NCBI GenBank assembly: GCA_018027755.1
Contig: GCA_018027755.1_4098.1
Length of the DNA stretch: 64,000 nt
Strand: one strand, 5' to 3'
From: a phage
Both the position numbers and the translations under genes were made by a program. Shown here piece after piece: positions 29,564 through 48,000 of this stretch (position 1 is its first letter; the number at the start of each line of letters is the position of its first letter). The notes beneath the pieces were generated by a model. It had not been told where the DNA came from, ran no database searches, and saw nothing but the letters and a program-made list of their open reading frames with translations.

Positions 29564-30115
29564 GTGAGGTACACAAGAATAGCTAAAATTACACAACAAC
29601 AATTCATAGATAAATCAATGAATATTCATGGTAGTATTTACACATACAATAAAACAATATATGTCAATGCACACCATCCAATAACTGTTACGTGTAACAT
29701 TCACGGTGACTTCACAGTAGTTCCTAATAAACACATTTCTGCAAAACAAGGGTGTCCAGTTTGTTCAGACCAAGAACTAAAATCAAAACCTGTTATTGAA
29801 ATTCAGAATTTTTTAAAAACGTGTGATATAATGTTTGAAATGGAAAAGAAATTTGATAGTTGTAAAAACATCAATCATTTACCATTTGATTTTTATATTC
29901 CTGAACTTAATCTACTAATAGAATATGATGGTATCCAACACTTCAAACCAATAGAATACTTCGGTGGAGAAGAAGGTTTAGCTGAACAACAACGAAATGA
30001 TGAAATTAAGAATAAGTATTGTTATGATAATAATATTACTTTACTTAGAATAAAGTATTCAGATGACCACATTAAAATTATAAAAGACTTCATATCAAAA
30101 AATATAAATTATTGA
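29564..30115 (+). CDS. homing-endonuclease-like protein: zinc-ribbon module fused to a PD-(D/E)xK (Vsr/restriction-endonuclease-like) domain
   Basis: N-terminal module YVNAHHPITVTCNIHGDF...GCPVC matches repeats of the 431-aa protein at 40565; C-terminal FDFYIP-x5-LLIEYDGIQH motif; track start is GTG 29564, ATG at 29618 is more likely. Confidence 0.55.
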   Translation: MRYTRIAKITQQQFIDKSMNIHGSIYTYNKTIYVNAHHPITVTCNIHGDFTVVPNKHISAKQGCPVCSDQELKSKPVIEIQNFLKTCDIMFEMEKKFDSCKNINHLPFDFYIPELNLLIEYDGIQHFKPIEYFGGEEGLAEQQRNDEIKNKYCYDNNITLLRIKYSDDHIKIIKDFISKNINY

Positions 30116-30127
30116 ATAGTTTTTATG

Positions 30128-30160
30128 AACCAAGTAATGTTTTGTTACTTGGTTTTTTTA
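30128..30160 (+). terminator. intrinsic terminator after endonuclease gene
   Basis: aaccaagtaa/ttacttggtt 10-bp stem followed by T7. Confidence 0.55.
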
Positions 30161-30203
30161 TACTTCAAAAATGTACTAAGTACTTTTTTATTTTTTTATG
30201 ATA

Positions 30204-30236
30204 TTAGTGGGAAGATTTTAAAAATAGTGCTATAAT
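30204..30236 (+). promoter_or_regulatory. sigma70-like promoter with extended -10 (TGcTATAAT)
   Basis: TATAAT 30231-30236 with TG at 30228-30229; weak -35; gtgctataat motif also at 52096 and 57403. Confidence 0.4.
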
Positions 30237-30243
30237 GTTTGTT

Positions 30244-30697
30244 GTAGTAATGACAATCCTGTTGAATGCAGAAATGCATATAAATTAGAACCTGATCCTA
30301 TCGAAAATGTAGATGGCAGATGAGCAGTTCAACAGTGCGATGAGCAAAAGAAACCCGTTAGATGTGGGCATAGTTTGAACCCCTCACGGCAATGCGGCTC
30401 AATAAAGAACTCCGATAAGCATACAGAGAGTTCCTAGATAGACATATAAGGATCGCACCTTACCAGATTTGCTAAGGGAGTTTATTAAGTGATTTTAATA
30501 AACAGCCTGAAGTTTGATTGTATAGACTTTCAGGTGAGTGTCAGGATGATTAAGACTGACGACCGTTGCACATGACTGCGATAGAGAGAAACAGAGCAAC
30601 CCGCTTTCGTTCTTAATATATTTTTAAGAAATTCGCAATACAATAAATGCTGAAACCATCAGCGTCAAGAAATAGAGACTTCATTGTCTCTTTTTTA
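30244..30697 (+). ncRNA. candidate structured non-coding RNA (~450 nt), class unknown
   Basis: no ORF above 60 aa on either strand; bounded by promoter (30231-30236) and intrinsic terminator (30674-30696); GC-enriched relative to flanks; several local inverted repeats (30506-30534, 30649-30663). Confidence 0.3.
30674..30697 (+). terminator. intrinsic terminator closing the candidate ncRNA unit
   Basis: agagac-ttcatt-gtctct hairpin followed by T6. Confidence 0.5.
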
Positions 30698-30912
30698 TTG
30701 TCTTCATTCCCCTGCGGGGGGATGAAAATGTCCTCAACAAATCCCGTCAAGTATTAAATCTTTTAAAGTTCTTTATAATTAATTTAATTAAATGAATATG
30801 AGTTACGTAGTAACGAATATTCTTCAGCTAACGAATGAAATGAGTTAGATGAATCCAATAATATTAAAATTAATCCTTTCATAATTCAATTCAAATAATT
30901 CTGTAGTTTAAA

Positions 30913-30943
30913 ACCAAAAAAAAACCAGCAACAATGTGCTGGC
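30913..30943 (-). terminator. intrinsic terminator after minus-strand 69-aa gene
   Basis: ccagca-acaatg-tgctgg hairpin with A9 run on + strand (T-run on minus). Confidence 0.5.
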
Positions 30944-30953
30944 TATATGAAAA

Positions 30954-31163
30954 TTAGTGCTTCTCGTTTTGTTTTTTAATTTTTTTATTAAAAGACTTAA
31001 CTAATAAGTCTCTATCTATTAATGGCATATTAAGGAGTGTTCCATAGTCAATGTTATCCATATATACAGAACATTCCATTAGTGCATTTTTGATTTCTGA
31101 CTTATTCAGTTCTATCTCCTTCAGTACTTCTTGTATTTCTTCAGGAGATGACTGGAGAAGCAT
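30954..31163 (-). CDS. hypothetical protein (69 aa)
   Basis: ORF whose start overlaps the stop of the upstream 278-aa gene; terminator immediately downstream. Confidence 0.45.
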   Translation of the reverse strand: MLLQSSPEEIQEVLKEIELNKSEIKNALMECSVYMDNIDYGTLLNMPLIDRDLLVKSFNKKIKKQNEKH

Positions 31164-42415: not shown

Positions 42416-44026
42416 ATGAGCATAAGTTTTAATAACCCATTGGATACAATGACCAGTACTGGTGCTAATGGATCTTTAGAACTAATAGTGCTTGGTGGTA
42501 CACCAACTAACCCAAGACCTATTCGTTTTAATTCGTCATCAGTTATTATACCAGTACAAACTTTACCTACTGGTGAACAAGGTGCAATGGTTTTTGATCG
42601 AAGCGAATTAGTTTTGAAGTATCATAACGGTACAAGTTGGGTTGCAGTATATGATACTGATACTATTTTGGAACCAATTAGAATTTCATTAGATGAAGTA
42701 AACCGAAAATTAAATTTAAAAGTAGAAAGTGTAACATACAGTAGTAGTACTGTTCCTAGTGCAAGTATTAGTGGAACAACCTTAAACATTGTATTCCCTA
42801 CTGCTTCTAGTGGTGGTTCTGGTCCAACTGGTCTTTACACTTCACTTAAACCTGGTGCTATTACACAATATTCATTGACTTCTGGTCAATCTGTTGCTAG
42901 TATACGTGAACAAATGTCAGGACAATCGAATGGACAAAGTGGGAGAAACGGTTCACAAGGTGCTCCGTGGAAAACGTCTGACGGTTGGTGTTTTGCTGAT
43001 GGTATGTGGTGGCAATGGGAGGGGGAAAATGGTACAATTACTAAACAAGTACCAAACCTTAACCAAAAAGCGTACTTAAAAGGTATATCTACATCTGGTG
43101 TAACTAAAACTGATAGTGTTATTGGTAGTAGCGGTAATATTAGCGGCACAGTATTAAGTGTTGCCCAATTACCATCACACTCATTTAGTTTTAGTGGGAC
43201 CACAGGGGCTGCTGGTCGTCATGGTCATAGTCAAGCACTAAAAGGTATGGACCGTAGTGGTCTAAATGCGATAACTTCAAGTAATGATAACGGTATACCA
43301 ACTGTAATCAATAACATTAACGAAGCACCAGACCACATTCACTCATTTAGTGGAAACACTAACACACTTGGTGGAAACCAACCACACTATCATGGTATTA
43401 GTAACATTGATGTGGAACACTTTAACGTTGCATATCTATATAACATTGCTGAATCTAACGTTGCATTGAGTGAAAAAGTTGCAAACACTCGTTATGTACT
43501 AAAAACTGGTGATACAATGACTGGTTCATTGACTATTGCAAACAGTGCGTCAATTAAGTCAAATGATACATCATTAGTTCTATATTTCCGTAACGCAAGC
43601 GGTGGTGAGCGTGCGGCAGTGTATCATAACTCTTCAAATAATACATTGAGATTGCGTTCCGGTGGAGCAGAAGTTACTGTAAACTCTTCTGGTACTTTAG
43701 CTGCTCCATCATTAACTGTTTCTAACAACTCAGCTACTGTTGGTGGTAAAAATATTGTTCGTTCAATTAACGGTACTGCTGCTGATGCTAGTGGCAACGT
43801 TACTTTGCAAATTAGTACTAATAACGTACAAAGTATTCGTTTGAGTGCACGTATTGAAACACGTAAAATACCTGATTCTTCATGGACATATACACCAGAA
43901 GGTGCATTTATGGATGGCGTATGGATTTCTGTTAATGGTAGTTCAGGCACTCACTTAGAACGAATTAGTTATCGCTATGTTCAAATGCAAATAAATGGTA
44001 ACTGGGAAACAGTACGTCAACAATAA
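42416..44026 (+). CDS. tail fiber / receptor-binding protein (putative)
   Basis: 536 aa; Ser/Thr/Gly/Asn-rich; repeated HSFSFSG...HGH and HIHSFSG...HYH His-x-His motifs as in phage fiber tips; followed by chaperone-like gene. Confidence 0.5.
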   Translation: MSISFNNPLDTMTSTGANGSLELIVLGGTPTNPRPIRFNSSSVIIPVQTLPTGEQGAMVFDRSELVLKYHNGTSWVAVYDTDTILEPIRISLDEVNRKLNLKVESVTYSSSTVPSASISGTTLNIVFPTASSGGSGPTGLYTSLKPGAITQYSLTSGQSVASIREQMSGQSNGQSGRNGSQGAPWKTSDGWCFADGMWWQWEGENGTITKQVPNLNQKAYLKGISTSGVTKTDSVIGSSGNISGTVLSVAQLPSHSFSFSGTTGAAGRHGHSQALKGMDRSGLNAITSSNDNGIPTVINNINEAPDHIHSFSGNTNTLGGNQPHYHGISNIDVEHFNVAYLYNIAESNVALSEKVANTRYVLKTGDTMTGSLTIANSASIKSNDTSLVLYFRNASGGERAAVYHNSSNNTLRLRSGGAEVTVNSSGTLAAPSLTVSNNSATVGGKNIVRSINGTAADASGNVTLQISTNNVQSIRLSARIETRKIPDSSWTYTPEGAFMDGVWISVNGSSGTHLERISYRYVQMQINGNWETVRQQ

Positions 44027-45024: not shown

Positions 45025-48000
45025 ATGTATATCGATGCTTATATGGAACGTAAACGTACTGGTGATATTCTTCATGTAGTTGAACGTAAGAATGGTAAAC
45101 GTATTCTACGCGAATTAGAACCAGTATATGAATATTATGTTGAATCCCCACAAGGAACACATAAAACTGTTTATGGTACAATGGCTAAACATTTTGAGTT
45201 TCAAACTCAAGCTCAAATGAATAAAAGTGTAGAGCAACACAAAAGTGAAGGTCTACGTATTTTTGAAAGTGATTGTAACATTACATTTAAAACATTAGCT
45301 AAAGAATATATGGGAAAAGGTTCACCCGATTTGAACATCGTGTTCTTCGATATCGAGACTGATTTCCATAAGAAATTTGGTTATGCTCCACCATCAGACC
45401 CGTTTAACCGAGTAACCGCTATTTCTCTATATCAATCATGGACTGGAAAGGATTATGTACTTACTTTACCACCTGCTGATATGGAAATTTATGAAGCACA
45501 AGATATTGTTCGCCAACTAAATGAAGAAACAAACGATCCTAACAGTACTGTAATTTTATATACAGACGAAAAGGAAATGTTTATGGAATTCTTTAGTTTA
45601 ATTGATGATTCTGATGTTATTTCAGGATGGAATAGTGAATTCTTTGATATTCCATATATGATCAATCGAACTAAAAAAATCTTCAATGAAGCAACAACTG
45701 CTCGTTGGTGTTTATGGAATAAAAAACCAAATTCACGTGAAGCAGACAACTTTGGTAAAACTGTTCAAACATATGATCTGGTAGGTCGCGTCCATCTTGA
45801 TTATTTGGCTTTGTATAAGAAACATGCTGGTCAAGTTGAACAATCTTATAAACTAGATTATATTGCTGAAAAAGTAACTAAAGAAAATAAAGTATCATAT
45901 GAAGGTTCATTGGATAAACTTTACAGAGAGGATTACATTACTTTCTTGCGTTATTCTAAACAGGATAGTATTCTTCTTAAAAAGATTGATGCTAAATGTG
46001 ACTATATCAACCTACACAATCGACTTGCACACAAAGAATGTGTACTTATCAGTACAACAATGGGTTCAGTAGCACTAATCGACACTGCTATTATCAACTT
46101 AGCACATACTCGTGGTGAAGTTGTTTTCAACAAAGCACCGAAAGATGATCTTGAGTTTGATCCAGAAATGGAATATTATGGTGAAGATGGTGAAGATGAA
46201 GATGAGAAAATTAGTGCAAAAGCAGCAGGTGCATGGGTACAAGATCCAGTACTAGGACTTGTAAGTGACCTTGGGTGTACTGACTTTAACTCTCTTTACC
46301 CTACTGTTCTACGTACTTTGGGTATGAGTACTGAATGTATTCTTGGTCAATTACGTCAAGATTACACCGATGCGTATCTTGCAGCTAAAATCCAAGAACA
46401 GAAGAACAAATCTAAATCTAAATCATTTGAACCAGATTGGACTGCGGCATGGCATGGTTTATTTGCTGCTGTTGAATTTACAATGGTTCATGAAAAGTCA
46501 GAAGAAACATTGATTGTTGATTTAGAAGATGGGAGTTCTTTTAAAGCAACGGGCAAAGAGCTATATGATATTATTTTTGCAGAAGATAGTACTATTGTAC
46601 TTAGTGCAAACGGAACACTTTTTGATAAGTCTAAGTCTGGTGTAATTCCTGACATTCTAACTCAATGGTATTCTGAACGTAAAGCACAGCAAAAAATGGT
46701 CATTGACTACAAACATATGTATACTGATGGTTGGGAGTTTAATGGCTATGAAAAAGTCGAACCACTACTATCAAACTATACCCCTGGTACAATGTTTAGA
46801 ACTAATATTCATGATAATGATCCTGTATACTTACTTCGTAAAGAAATTGGTAAAGGACAGTGGGATGAAGTTGCTAAGTTGATTGTAGAAAACGGATTAG
46901 TACTAAAAGATGGTCGTATTTTCTGTCCTAAAGAAGAAAAAGATTACTTCAAACAACGTAGTGCTTTCTGGAAACAGAACCAACAGATTCGTAAGATTCT
47001 TCTAAACAGTCTATATGGTGCACTATTGAACAAAGGTTCTCGTTTTTTTGACAAACGTTTAGGTCAATCCGTAACATTAACTGGACGTTCTATGACCAAA
47101 CATATGGCAAGTCGTATCAATGAAATTACTACTGGTGTATATAACCACCAAGGTGGTTCAGTAATTTATGGTGATACTGACTCAGTTTACTTTAGTGTAA
47201 CTCATTATCTGAAAGAACAAGGTATTCCATATAATCTATCTAAAGAAGAGATTGTTGATATGTATATTAAAATTGGTGAAGAAGTTGGTGAATCTTTCCC
47301 ATCATTTATGCATGAGATGTTCAACACTGGTATTGAAAAAGGTAAGATTGTTGGTGCAGACCTTGAGATGGTTGGTTCGCGTGGCCTATTCTTGAAGAAA
47401 AAACGTTATGCAATTCTGAAGTACTGGGAAGATGGGTTCCGTAAAGATATTGATGGTAAACCAGGTGAAATCAAAGCGATGGGTCTTGAAATTAAACGCT
47501 CAGATACGCCAAAATACATCCAGAACTTCCTAGAAGAGACTCTAATCGCATTACTGGTAGGTGAGAGTGAACAACAGCTAAAACAGCGTGTACGTGAGTT
47601 TAAGGACGTATTTAAGGATATGCCTGTACATGAAAAAGGTTCACCAAAAACTGTAAAAAACTACACTAATTTAGAGGCTGAATATCAGCTAACTGGTAAG
47701 TGTAAAGTTGGTCACGTTCTTGCTGGTATCCAATGGAACCGTCTACGTGAAGTTTATGATGATAAATCTGTTCCAGAAGTAACAGATGGAACAAAAGTAA
47801 TTGTCTGTAACTTAAAAGATAATCCTATGGGAATTAAAGCAGTTGGTTATCCAATTGACTGTGTTGAGTATCTTCCAGAATGGTTCTTGGAACTACCATT
47901 TGATACTGAAAAAATGGAAGAGATTGTTCTAACTAAAAAATTAGAGAATATTTTTGGTATTTTGGATATGGATATTGGTATTCATGAAAAAAGTACTGCG

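Follow-up and report, generated by a model that had tools for sequence, protein, structure and literature searches.

The present study concerns a phage DNA of 64,000 nucleotides (nt; assembly GCA_018027755.1, contig GCA_018027755.1_4098.1), called the window here, and an interval in it, 30116-30953, where no open reading frame (ORF) of 60 or more amino acids (aa) lies on either strand, the longest being just 45, 37 and 36 aa. The locus is flanked by SbcCD/endonuclease VII genes on one side and by baseplate-hub genes on the other. An earlier inspection without database searches (the sequence-only reading) had proposed that this interval is free of ORFs and holds a GC-enriched segment, and both points were borne out: the RNA described below has a GC content of 38.8% and its 3' tail one of 44.3%, compared with 20-21% for each flank and 34.5% for the whole window. 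When 30100-30960 was compared with the GenBank phages by BLAST, identity was 99.5% to Escherichia phages ECO103 4-12-1 and EC22.5-2 and 98% to PBECO4, 121Q, phAPEC6 and G17. The matched phages are Asteriusvirus (121Q/PBECO4-like), Rak2-like jumbo myoviruses of about 350 kb; the window derives from such a phage and corresponds to 121Q coordinates from about 296 kb across the record end to about 12 kb. We found that the unit from 30228 to about 30757 on the + strand is the gene for a large non-coding RNA, and this part of our explanation, taken alone, is held with very high confidence.

DNA-level conservation of the non-coding stretch extends to 72 phage records, each with several matching places. 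Identity to the window is 87-100% in Asteriusvirus, 73-75% in the Munch/7t3-like Salmonella phages, 73% in Erwinia phage Hallingskeid, 72-79% in Xanthomonas XbC2/XaC1, 70% in Mimasvirus CBB/GAP32 and 66% in Eneladusvirus BF/Yen9-04; in Alcyoneusvirus RaK2/K64-1 it is about 74% over a core of about 105 nt. The whole genome of 121Q carries exactly four copies, A to D, all on the + strand and each within an ORF-free gap of 600-840 nt, and this number was confirmed by a covariance model of the 3' domain. About five copies are present in the other Rak2-like genera, and a single one, taken to be one of four paralogues of its genome, was detected in the window by local blastn and the covariance model. 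Compensating hairpins are already visible among the four 121Q paralogues.

The RNA folds into two domains with at least 14 helices and three pseudoknots (Table 1). Three alignments were used to examine this fold: A1 (MAFFT, 26 sequences) and A3 (covariance model, 57 distinct sequences) for the 3' domain, and A2 for the 5' domain. The covariation analysis of homologous regions suggested by the sequence-only reading gave a clear result, in that 96.6-97.3% of the cells were paired against 26-45% in slid controls, 21-32 pairs had changed on both sides, and the covariation score was reached by none of 500 shuffles. These are compensatory changes beyond both the shuffled and the slid controls, as is generally asked of a conserved structured RNA. 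For the 3' domain, which is the most widely conserved core, A1 gave 97.3% paired cells against about 40% after sliding, with two-sided changes in 31 of 41 pairs, and A3 gave 97.1%; two pseudoknot helices that lie outside the A3 covariance model were still 97.3% and 100% paired. For the 5' domain (A2), 96.6% of cells were paired against 26-44%, and 21 of 32 pairs had changed on both sides. In addition, RNAalifold independently recovered S1, S4, S6 and S5, and the covariance model of the 3' domain matched with 161.8 bits. The inverted repeat cctgaagt/actttcagg (30506-30534), picked out in the earlier inspection, proved to be a covarying helix in which 10 of 11 pairs have changed on both sides. 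The second repeat named there, gctga/tcagc (30649-30663), does pair in the window sequence, but a conserved register for this hairpin was sought across the homologues and none was found. Near-invariant unpaired nucleotides (GACCG, GAAAC and ACCCGC) are found in the double-pseudoknot core.

The + strand is the favoured strand of the RNA. When the pairs of the 3' domain were read on the opposite strand, pairing dropped from 97.3% to 90.1% because 84 G.U cells turn into A.C; the + strand had a minimum free energy (MFE) z-score of -2.5, the - strand one of -1.7. The 5' leader is weakly conserved in sequence and has its hairpin in most copies. In the 5' domain, most copies have AUG/CAU as the short pseudoknot Pk, some have AUA/UAU and copy B has ACA/UGU, and in one subgroup a UUCG tetraloop replaces the hairpin inside Pd, which amounts to a natural deletion experiment. 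Where the window has the linker hairpin Ph, other copies have an inserted module of about 35 nt composed of AAAUUUU, G, a GUAC-containing hairpin, GUCY and AAAAUUU. This module has two insertion points among the copies, after CUAAGGGAG or within hairpin S5, and the window copy carries it at neither; it is present in 121Q copy B (L012 ~47900-47940), in copy C (L011 ~43030-43080) and in many A1/A2 loci. Helix caps are frequently GNRA tetraloops. These caps, the module swapped between two sites and the UUCG replacement are signs of a compact tertiary fold. A candidate long-range helix between CCCGUUAG and CUAAGGG was also considered; it is incompatible with Pd.

Table 1. Features of the RNA locus and its copies. 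Positions are those of the window unless another sequence is named.
Feature	Position	Strand	Remarks
Homing endonuclease ORF, 183 aa	29564..30115	+	PHROG 559 (HNH endonuclease), 9084 (homing endonuclease)
-35-like box TGGGAAG	30208..30214	+	class TG(G/A)GACA-N15/16-TGnTATAAT; aligned box in 37/48 copies
Extended -10 element TGCTATAAT	30228..30236	+	conserved in 44/48 copies
Variable 5' leader with GAAA-capped hairpin 30265-30277	30243..30291	+	alignment; MFE and centroid folds
5' domain	30292..30480	+	helices Pa, Pb, Pc, Pd, Pf, Pg and pseudoknot Pk; alignment A2
Pa	30292-302/30312-19	+	loop GAAAAUGUA
Pb	30324-28/30334-38	+	
Pc	30341-45/30397-401	+	
Pd	30355-58/30386-89	+	
Pf	30407-12/30428-33	+	
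Pseudoknot Pk	30392-94/30443-45	+	3 bp
Pg	30447-51/30458-62	+	
CUAAGGGAG	30472-80	+	near-invariant; closes 5' domain
Variable linker hairpin Ph	30481..30502	+	inserted module of ~35 nt instead in other copies
3' domain	30506..30644	+	S1-S6 and PK1; alignments A1, A3
S1 hairpin	30506-16/30524-34	+	
PK1, S1 loop AUUGUAU with AUACAAU	30517-23/30638-44	+	
S2 hairpin	30538-44/30556-63	+	
S3 pseudoknot GUUGC/GCAAC	30565-69/30596-600	+	into S6 loop
S4 UGCGA/UCGCA	30577-81/30633-37	+	encloses S6 and S5, abuts PK1
S6 GAGAG/CUUUC	30584-88/30604-08	+	
S5 hairpin	30610-16/30624-30	+	
3' extension	30645..30669	+	local hairpin 30649-53/30659-63; ends in conserved CAUCAGCGUCAAG
Terminator-like hairpin T1, AGAGAC/GUCUCU and U6	30674..30696	+	scan; dG -7.9 kcal/mol
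Conserved 3' tail	30703..30757	+	hairpin 30703-12/30717-26, then CCUCAACAAAUCCCGUCAAG
AT-rich spacer	30758..30944	+	21% GC, small hairpins; ends at hairpin 30923-30944
121Q copy A	121Q 326597-327112	+	orthologue of window copy
121Q copy B	121Q 247455-248011	+	
121Q copy C	121Q 192836-193204	+	
121Q copy D	121Q 90331-90727	+	
E. coli island	LR-29-1 NZ_AP027515.1 3472915-3483615		L098 10900-21600; RNA copy L098 15000-15545

The sigma70-like extended -10 promoter that the sequence-only reading had placed at 30228-30236 is present, and TGnTAnAAT stands at the aligned position in 44 of the 48 homologous copies over which promoters, T-runs and terminator-like hairpins were counted. With its TGnTATAAT motif, the right upstream distance and this conservation, the element is predicted to be an active sigma70 extended -10 promoter, from which transcription would start near 30243. 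A simple promoter scan of the region did not list it because the -35 hexamer is too weak for the scan rule. In 121Q, the + strand holds 85 occurrences of TGNTATAAT and the - strand 16, while about 21 per strand are expected from base composition, which makes a four-fold enrichment on the + strand. Of the longer form TG(G/A)GACA-N13-17-TATAAT, the + strand of 121Q has 20 sites where 2.7 are expected. For the annotated genes of ssb, primase, an exonuclease and the gp55-like late sigma factor, sites of this class lie at up to about 120 nt on the upstream side, and RNA copies A, C and D are preceded by such sites too; according to the 121Q annotation, SbcCD follows the gp55-like late sigma gene that has such a promoter. 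Buttimer et al described a 'divergent RpoD-like' class with the -35 sequence TGAAACG upstream of the DNA-synthesis genes of CBB and GAP32 (PMC5259590), which the promoter class of the RNA resembles. Since the promoter class is common to both, the RNA is probably made together with the replication and recombination genes of the phage, a timing that we infer from the promoters. Two arrangements differ from that of the window: in Mimasvirus-like C-type copies, e.g. XbC2 (L006 ~1417-1500), a terminator-like hairpin with a U-run lies between the extended -10 element and the fold, and in the C-type copy of RaK2 the terminator comes first and the promoter second. A further TGGGACA-N15-TGnTATAAT promoter, at 135736 of 121Q, is the one found in a 2-kb stretch without annotated gene (135194-137161); this stretch had no match to Rfam or to the RNA model.

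At the 3' end, the intrinsic terminator assigned earlier to 30674-30696 is only partly upheld: the hairpin and T6 are there, but the stability is modest, the stem holding three GC pairs, and 121Q copies C and D are without it. A T-run was found at the T1 position in 36 of the 48 copies and was missing in 12, and conserved RNA-type structure follows. A terminator scan of the region listed five terminator-like sites against 0.5 expected, one of them a - strand terminator at 30944-30923. The end of the unit at 30700, as first drawn, had to be moved, as the conserved part runs on through a hairpin and tail to about 30757, some 60 nt past the terminator-like hairpin. Because this hairpin and tail beyond the terminator-like hairpin are conserved in all copies, the functional unit would be about 30243-30757. 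The tail is present in all four 121Q paralogues and in all genera, and it also occurs in two groups known from metagenomes (X and Y) and in the E. coli island described below. Its hairpin (dG -16.9 kcal/mol) sets a C/U-rich arm opposite an invariant G run and varies by exchange of C and U opposite the invariant G, the pattern that RNA-type pairing on the + strand would give. In group Y the tail directly abuts the 3' domain. The same heptamer ends the body and the tail, and both change together between groups (CGUCAAG twice vs ACGAAG twice). A pairing partner for the tail was sought in two ways, through complementarity within three divergent groups and through covariation of alignment columns, and nothing consistent was found. 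The sequence of the 3' extension (30645-30669) is conserved across the copies. Membership of the AT-rich spacer in the RNA is uncertain, as it is conserved among A-type copies only. The hairpin CCAGCA...UGCUGG at its end is bordered by an A-run, and in Munch and BF its opposite side adjoins a U-rich run. Judged by its sequence, it looks like a bidirectional terminator that ends the converging baseplate-hub genes of the - strand and may stop read-through + transcripts too.

To place the RNA among known families, the 4227 models of Rfam 15 were run at the gathering threshold and then at E<=10. At the gathering threshold the 64-kb window had no match. At E<=10, 30000-31000 and 15 homologous loci (nine orthologous or paralogous and six divergent) gave only weak terminator-like or chance matches, and the few that overlap the 3' end of the element cover the terminator-like hairpin and tail. 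Hence no family was found in these 16 loci, and the proposal of a structured non-coding RNA of about 450 nt and unknown class is upheld, both by this result and by covariation in the three alignments. ARAGORN found no tRNA or tmRNA gene in the window, the sole match of the tmRNA model being 5.5 bits (E=9), which agrees with the reported absence of a tRNA cloverleaf. Flanking exons are likewise absent, as had been stated, since both flanks are ORF-free AT-rich spacer. The suggestion of an orphaned intron core found no support: no Intron_gpI match was obtained at E<=10 in the 16 loci, just 7 nt lie between the 5' strands of S3 and S4 where P4-P6 would be placed so that no P4-P6-like domain occurs in the helix order, no gene is interrupted, and the four 121Q copies are all intergenic. 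The element is like group I introns in its size range, its multi-copy occurrence in T4-like phages and its homing endonuclease association, and the interleaved order of S3 and S4 loosely recalls P3/P7, but it is without a recognisable guanosine-binding P7. RNase P RNA was rejected as well, with no model at E<=10 and the GAGGAAAGUCC motif absent; CAGAUGA... and AAGAAACCCG bear a superficial likeness to it, judged by eye only. A hammerhead was rejected on CAGAUGAG, which has A at the invariant U4 and is replaced by GUUGAG or AAUGAG in some copies, on the varying three bases after Pb (GAU, GAA, GCA, GUU) and on the lack of an Rfam hammerhead match.

Large phage RNAs offer the closest comparison in architecture. 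The GOLLD and ROOL models of Rfam had no match in the window or the 15 homologous loci. Like those RNAs, the element is several hundred nt long, phage-encoded and non-coding with no assigned function, has many helices and pseudoknots, and combines a constant core with a variable periphery. Unlike them, it occurs in enterobacterial lytic jumbo myoviruses at four to five copies per genome, and it is not beside the 121Q tRNA cluster (72-78 kb; nearest copy 90 kb). Large RNAs of the GOLLD/ROOL type have been reported to form homo-oligomeric cages (10.1101/2024.12.08.627333), and the covarying contact of loop and strand in PK1 might in principle also join two molecules, since covariation fits either mode. 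The pRNA of phi29 is comparable as a phage-encoded, promoter-driven RNA whose loop complementarity covaries among relatives. It differs in being about 174 nt, single copy and part of a phi29-type motor, while gene 4 of 121Q is a T4-type terminase; moreover, PK1 abuts S4, so an intramolecular pseudoknot is simpler than a pRNA-like intermolecular contact. We found no description of the element in full-text searches on Rak2-like and jumbo phages, large phage RNAs and viral structured RNAs, nor in the genome papers and reviews consulted for this phage group. In one large screen for viral structured RNAs the candidates average 67 nt, and its main text names none from these phages (PMC10690425). The element is a new RNA class and not a member or variant of a known one, with the caveat that fragments of it could be among the candidates of that screen.

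The distribution of the copies was followed through genomes and metagenomes, further copies being collected with a degenerate sequence pattern. Loci A and C are syntenic across genera. In Munch, Hallingskeid, BF and CBB, locus A has endonuclease VII on one side and the baseplate hub on the other, and around it the nucleotide conservation of the RNA equals that of the neighbouring core genes (64-74%). At locus C, the RNA of 121Q, XbC2 and RaK2 is followed by a hypothetical gene, dam and a cytidylyltransferase, and the proteins flanking it are just 31-39% identical between genera. Paralogy was looked for among the proteins downstream of the four 121Q copies and none was found, so there is no RNA-protein pairing to follow. 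In IMG/VR the pattern gave 31 loci, all on contigs of jumbo-phage size. In metagenomes it gave 49 loci, of which 40 were true members, including groups X and Y; these two groups retain the 3' domain, AAAGGGAG and the tail, have no counterpart among isolated phages, and in group X a different 5' domain is carried. One group X copy, on contig OERT01000271.1 (L054 34-1300), stands beside an apparently truncated bacterial MFS-transporter ORF, which is followed by a 1366-aa ORF without PHROG match; this copy may mark where an integrated element ends. The pattern search of 100,044 representative genomes of bacteria and archaea gave one hit, a chance match in GC-rich coding sequence (nhmmer E=7), and the PLSDB plasmids had no match to the RNA. 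Outside the Rak2-like jumbo phages, members of the family occur only in some uncultured relatives and in a single E. coli defence island.

This island copy was found in the chromosome of 2 of 5,426 complete E. coli genomes, with 70% identity over 98% of the RNA. The island, of 10.7 kb between ffs and ybaA, is identical in both genomes; its integrase is disrupted by IS3 and its cargo includes the PADLOC candidate defence system PDC-M45 (DuOB, DUF488, mSLOG-DUF4326). Upstream of the RNA lies a 318-aa PD-(D/E)XK-like/zinc-finger ORF, and downstream lie a transmembrane protein, a 118-aa ORF and a ParB-like ORF, adjoined by PDC-M45. In other strains the same ffs/ybaA spot holds other cargo, e.g. 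a type III restriction enzyme or an HNH endonuclease. The island RNA is complete, with its own TGTGATATAAT extended -10 promoter, both domains, terminator-like hairpin and tail, and scores 158.7 bits with the covariance model. It is 80.6% identical to copy A of Serratia phage BF, and the homology to phage spans the 5' domain to the tail only; the ORFs beside it have no jumbo-phage homologues, and no replication or packaging genes were seen in the island. The copy is horizontally transferred. A role as decoy or sensor is its simplest reading, and its presence suggests that the RNA is a point of phage-host conflict.

Regarding the neighbouring reading frames, the homing-endonuclease-like gene which the sequence-only reading had placed in an accessory island together with the RNA does match PHROG families, but the accessory part is 29564-30115 only and the RNA unit does not belong to it. 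The site of this ORF is between endonuclease VII and the promoter of the RNA; the ORF is ended by a + strand terminator that the scan listed at 30127-30155. It is a recent insertion, a neighbour outside the RNA unit; the association is recent and local because 121Q and G17 do not have the ORF here. Since the RNA locus is syntenic across genera and the endonuclease is recently inserted, the link to an endonuclease or accessory island is coincidental. In Salmonella phage Munch, sequence related to the homing endonuclease also lies upstream of the RNA. The 28-codon GTG frame (30489-30575), the only coding potential named earlier, exists but is not conserved. It was rejected, as were a 36-codon ATG frame and mini-ORFs after the G run, for indels shift the frames between copies; in paralogues and orthologues the small frames are without start codons. 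GenBank records, e.g. that of Hallingskeid (L003 1459-1963), list three to five small 'hypothetical protein' coding sequences across the RNA on either strand, and gene 516 of the 121Q record lies inside copy B; such annotations are probably spurious. The UE-S1 record has a bare 'repeat_region' over the 5' part of the element.

Taken as a whole, the best explanation is that this gene makes an RNA which acts in trans as a folded RNA, to which we give a probability of roughly 0.55. In this explanation, host RNA polymerase would transcribe the RNA from about 30243, alongside the replication and recombination genes; some transcripts would end at the weak T1 (about 454 nt) and others would pass through the tail (about 515 nt or more). 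The compact RNA might then serve in trans as a stable structural RNA, a scaffold, a component of a ribonucleoprotein or a binding target, and it may bind a protein partner, or itself, in the manner of the large 'ornate' phage RNAs. In the conflict between phage and host, the island copy would then play the part of a decoy or sensor. Action in trans is favoured because the elaborate fold is under strong selection, most copies have a discrete terminator-like end, and an intact copy stands in the island. As an analogy only, PA5oct, a jumbo phage related to the Rak2-like group, has four ORF-free + strand transcribed regions of 236-619 nt found by RNA-seq (ncRNA001-004), of which two are abundant throughout infection (PMC7318152). 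A stronger form, in which the new class has an activity of its own (catalysis, capture of a ligand or protein, or self-assembly), is required at the replication or middle stage and was captured by bacteria as a decoy or sensor, is possible, at odds that we consider low.

Several points weigh against the trans explanation. The partner and the activity of such an RNA are putative, and the transcript ends are likewise predicted from the sequence. The conserved tail 3' of T1 in most copies is awkward for an RNA gene that runs from promoter to terminator, and in some genera the promoter of the C-type copies is separated from the RNA by a terminator-like hairpin. Identity between paralogues within a genome is about that between orthologues of different genera, which leaves the history of the copies unclear, and four to five diverged copies at fixed positions fit a role in cis at least as well as one in trans. 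In addition, ncRNA001 and ncRNA002 of PA5oct are not homologous to the element, their comparison with it by nhmmer (all filters off) and by covariance model having given no similarity.

We consider it rather unlikely that each copy works in cis as a co-transcriptional regulator, either by processive antitermination, in which the RNA while still nascent would remain on the polymerase that made it or alter this enzyme, or as a very large attenuator. Each copy would control its own unit, and transcription would run past the terminator-like hairpin into the tail and farther. This idea gains from the promoter of each copy, from the weak terminator-like hairpin in 36 of 48 copies with more conserved sequence behind it, from the terminator-like hairpins that several copies have within the presumed transcript, from the fixed and dispersed positions, and from the orientation of the four 121Q copies, which is that of most genes; the island RNA, too, precedes three co-oriented genes. 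The put RNAs of HK022 and other processive antiterminator RNAs (EAR) similarly are promoter-proximal structured RNAs followed by terminators, with more than one copy per phage genome for this type, and such a model would account for the conserved sequence past the terminator-like hairpin. Known antiterminator RNAs, however, are 70-120 nt, and the element, at 500 nt with three pseudoknots, is five to seven times larger than the put and EAR RNAs and has no sequence similarity to them. Copy A faces converging genes, without a downstream co-oriented operon and with no + strand gene for 1.4 kb; at C-type loci a further extended -10 promoter follows the tail and precedes the next gene; and no alternative terminator/antiterminator pairing was found. 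Less probable still is a replication-origin transcript, by which the four to five copies would each be the site of an origin and a persistent RNA hybrid near the G run would prime the leading strand, as at T4 oriF/oriG or in ColE1 RNA II. The likeness lies in a dedicated promoter, a non-coding transcript of about 0.5 kb and a G run near its 3' end. Moreover, the T4 origins also exist in several dispersed copies, as do the four to five per genome of about 350 kb here, and also use a promoter class common to replication genes (middle promoters in T4), here ssb, primase and exonuclease. The phage has T4-like replication genes, including a UvsW-like helicase and RNase H, the invariant G6 run follows the U-run with a 21% GC stretch after it in copy A, and a mobile island could amplify itself by a captured origin. 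Against this, selection acts on a pseudoknotted fold which T4-type origins do not need, which is far more elaborate and more conserved than priming requires and which would compete with hybrid formation, and no replication or packaging genes were seen in the island. A common unwinding element or iteron set is also lacking: AACGAAGTGA-like motifs cluster only at 121Q copy B and the AT-richness past the tail is specific to copy A, so that neither is common to all four copies, and both readings of the downstream stretch were rejected.

A catalytic or selfish RNA, whether a self-cleaving or exon-less intron-derived ribozyme or a mobile module perhaps aided by an endonuclease, is quite improbable. 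In its favour are the near-invariant unpaired nucleotides of the double-pseudoknot core, the multiple copies, the horizontal transfer into an E. coli island, the endonuclease-like ORFs directly upstream (in the window, Munch and the island) and the short motif that ends body and tail alike and co-changes between groups. No Rfam ribozyme or intron family was matched even at E<=10, however, the hammerhead-like CAGAUGAG is without the invariant U4 and its GAA positions vary, and neither flanking exons nor a target-site pattern are present; copy number and positions are stable across genera, unlike those of an active mobile element. That there is no RNA gene at all, the conservation being that of a DNA-level repeat (a site of protein binding or recombination) or of small peptides from the 28-codon GTG and 36-codon ATG frames, is hardly credible. 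Small ORFs do exist, CUAAGGGAG is Shine-Dalgarno-like and precedes the GTG frame, and the 'repeat_region' of UE-S1 could be cited for it; but the frames are broken by indels and lose their start codons in paralogues and orthologues, and the compensatory changes, the G.U-tolerant pairs and the strand asymmetry indicate an RNA fold.

Large and intricate non-coding RNAs are rare, and new classes have tended to yield new biochemistry or RNA architecture. The RNA described here is well suited to study, with about 500 nt, three covariation-supported pseudoknots and dozens of diverged sequences for modelling, and its carriers are cultivable phages of E. coli, Klebsiella, Salmonella and Erwinia that are under development for therapy. 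It occupies the largest unannotated gaps of these 350-kb genomes, and the common promoter class links it to the replication phase of infection. If the origin or the antitermination explanation were true, the RNA would provide a first handle on the start of replication or the organisation of transcription in giant T4-like genomes.

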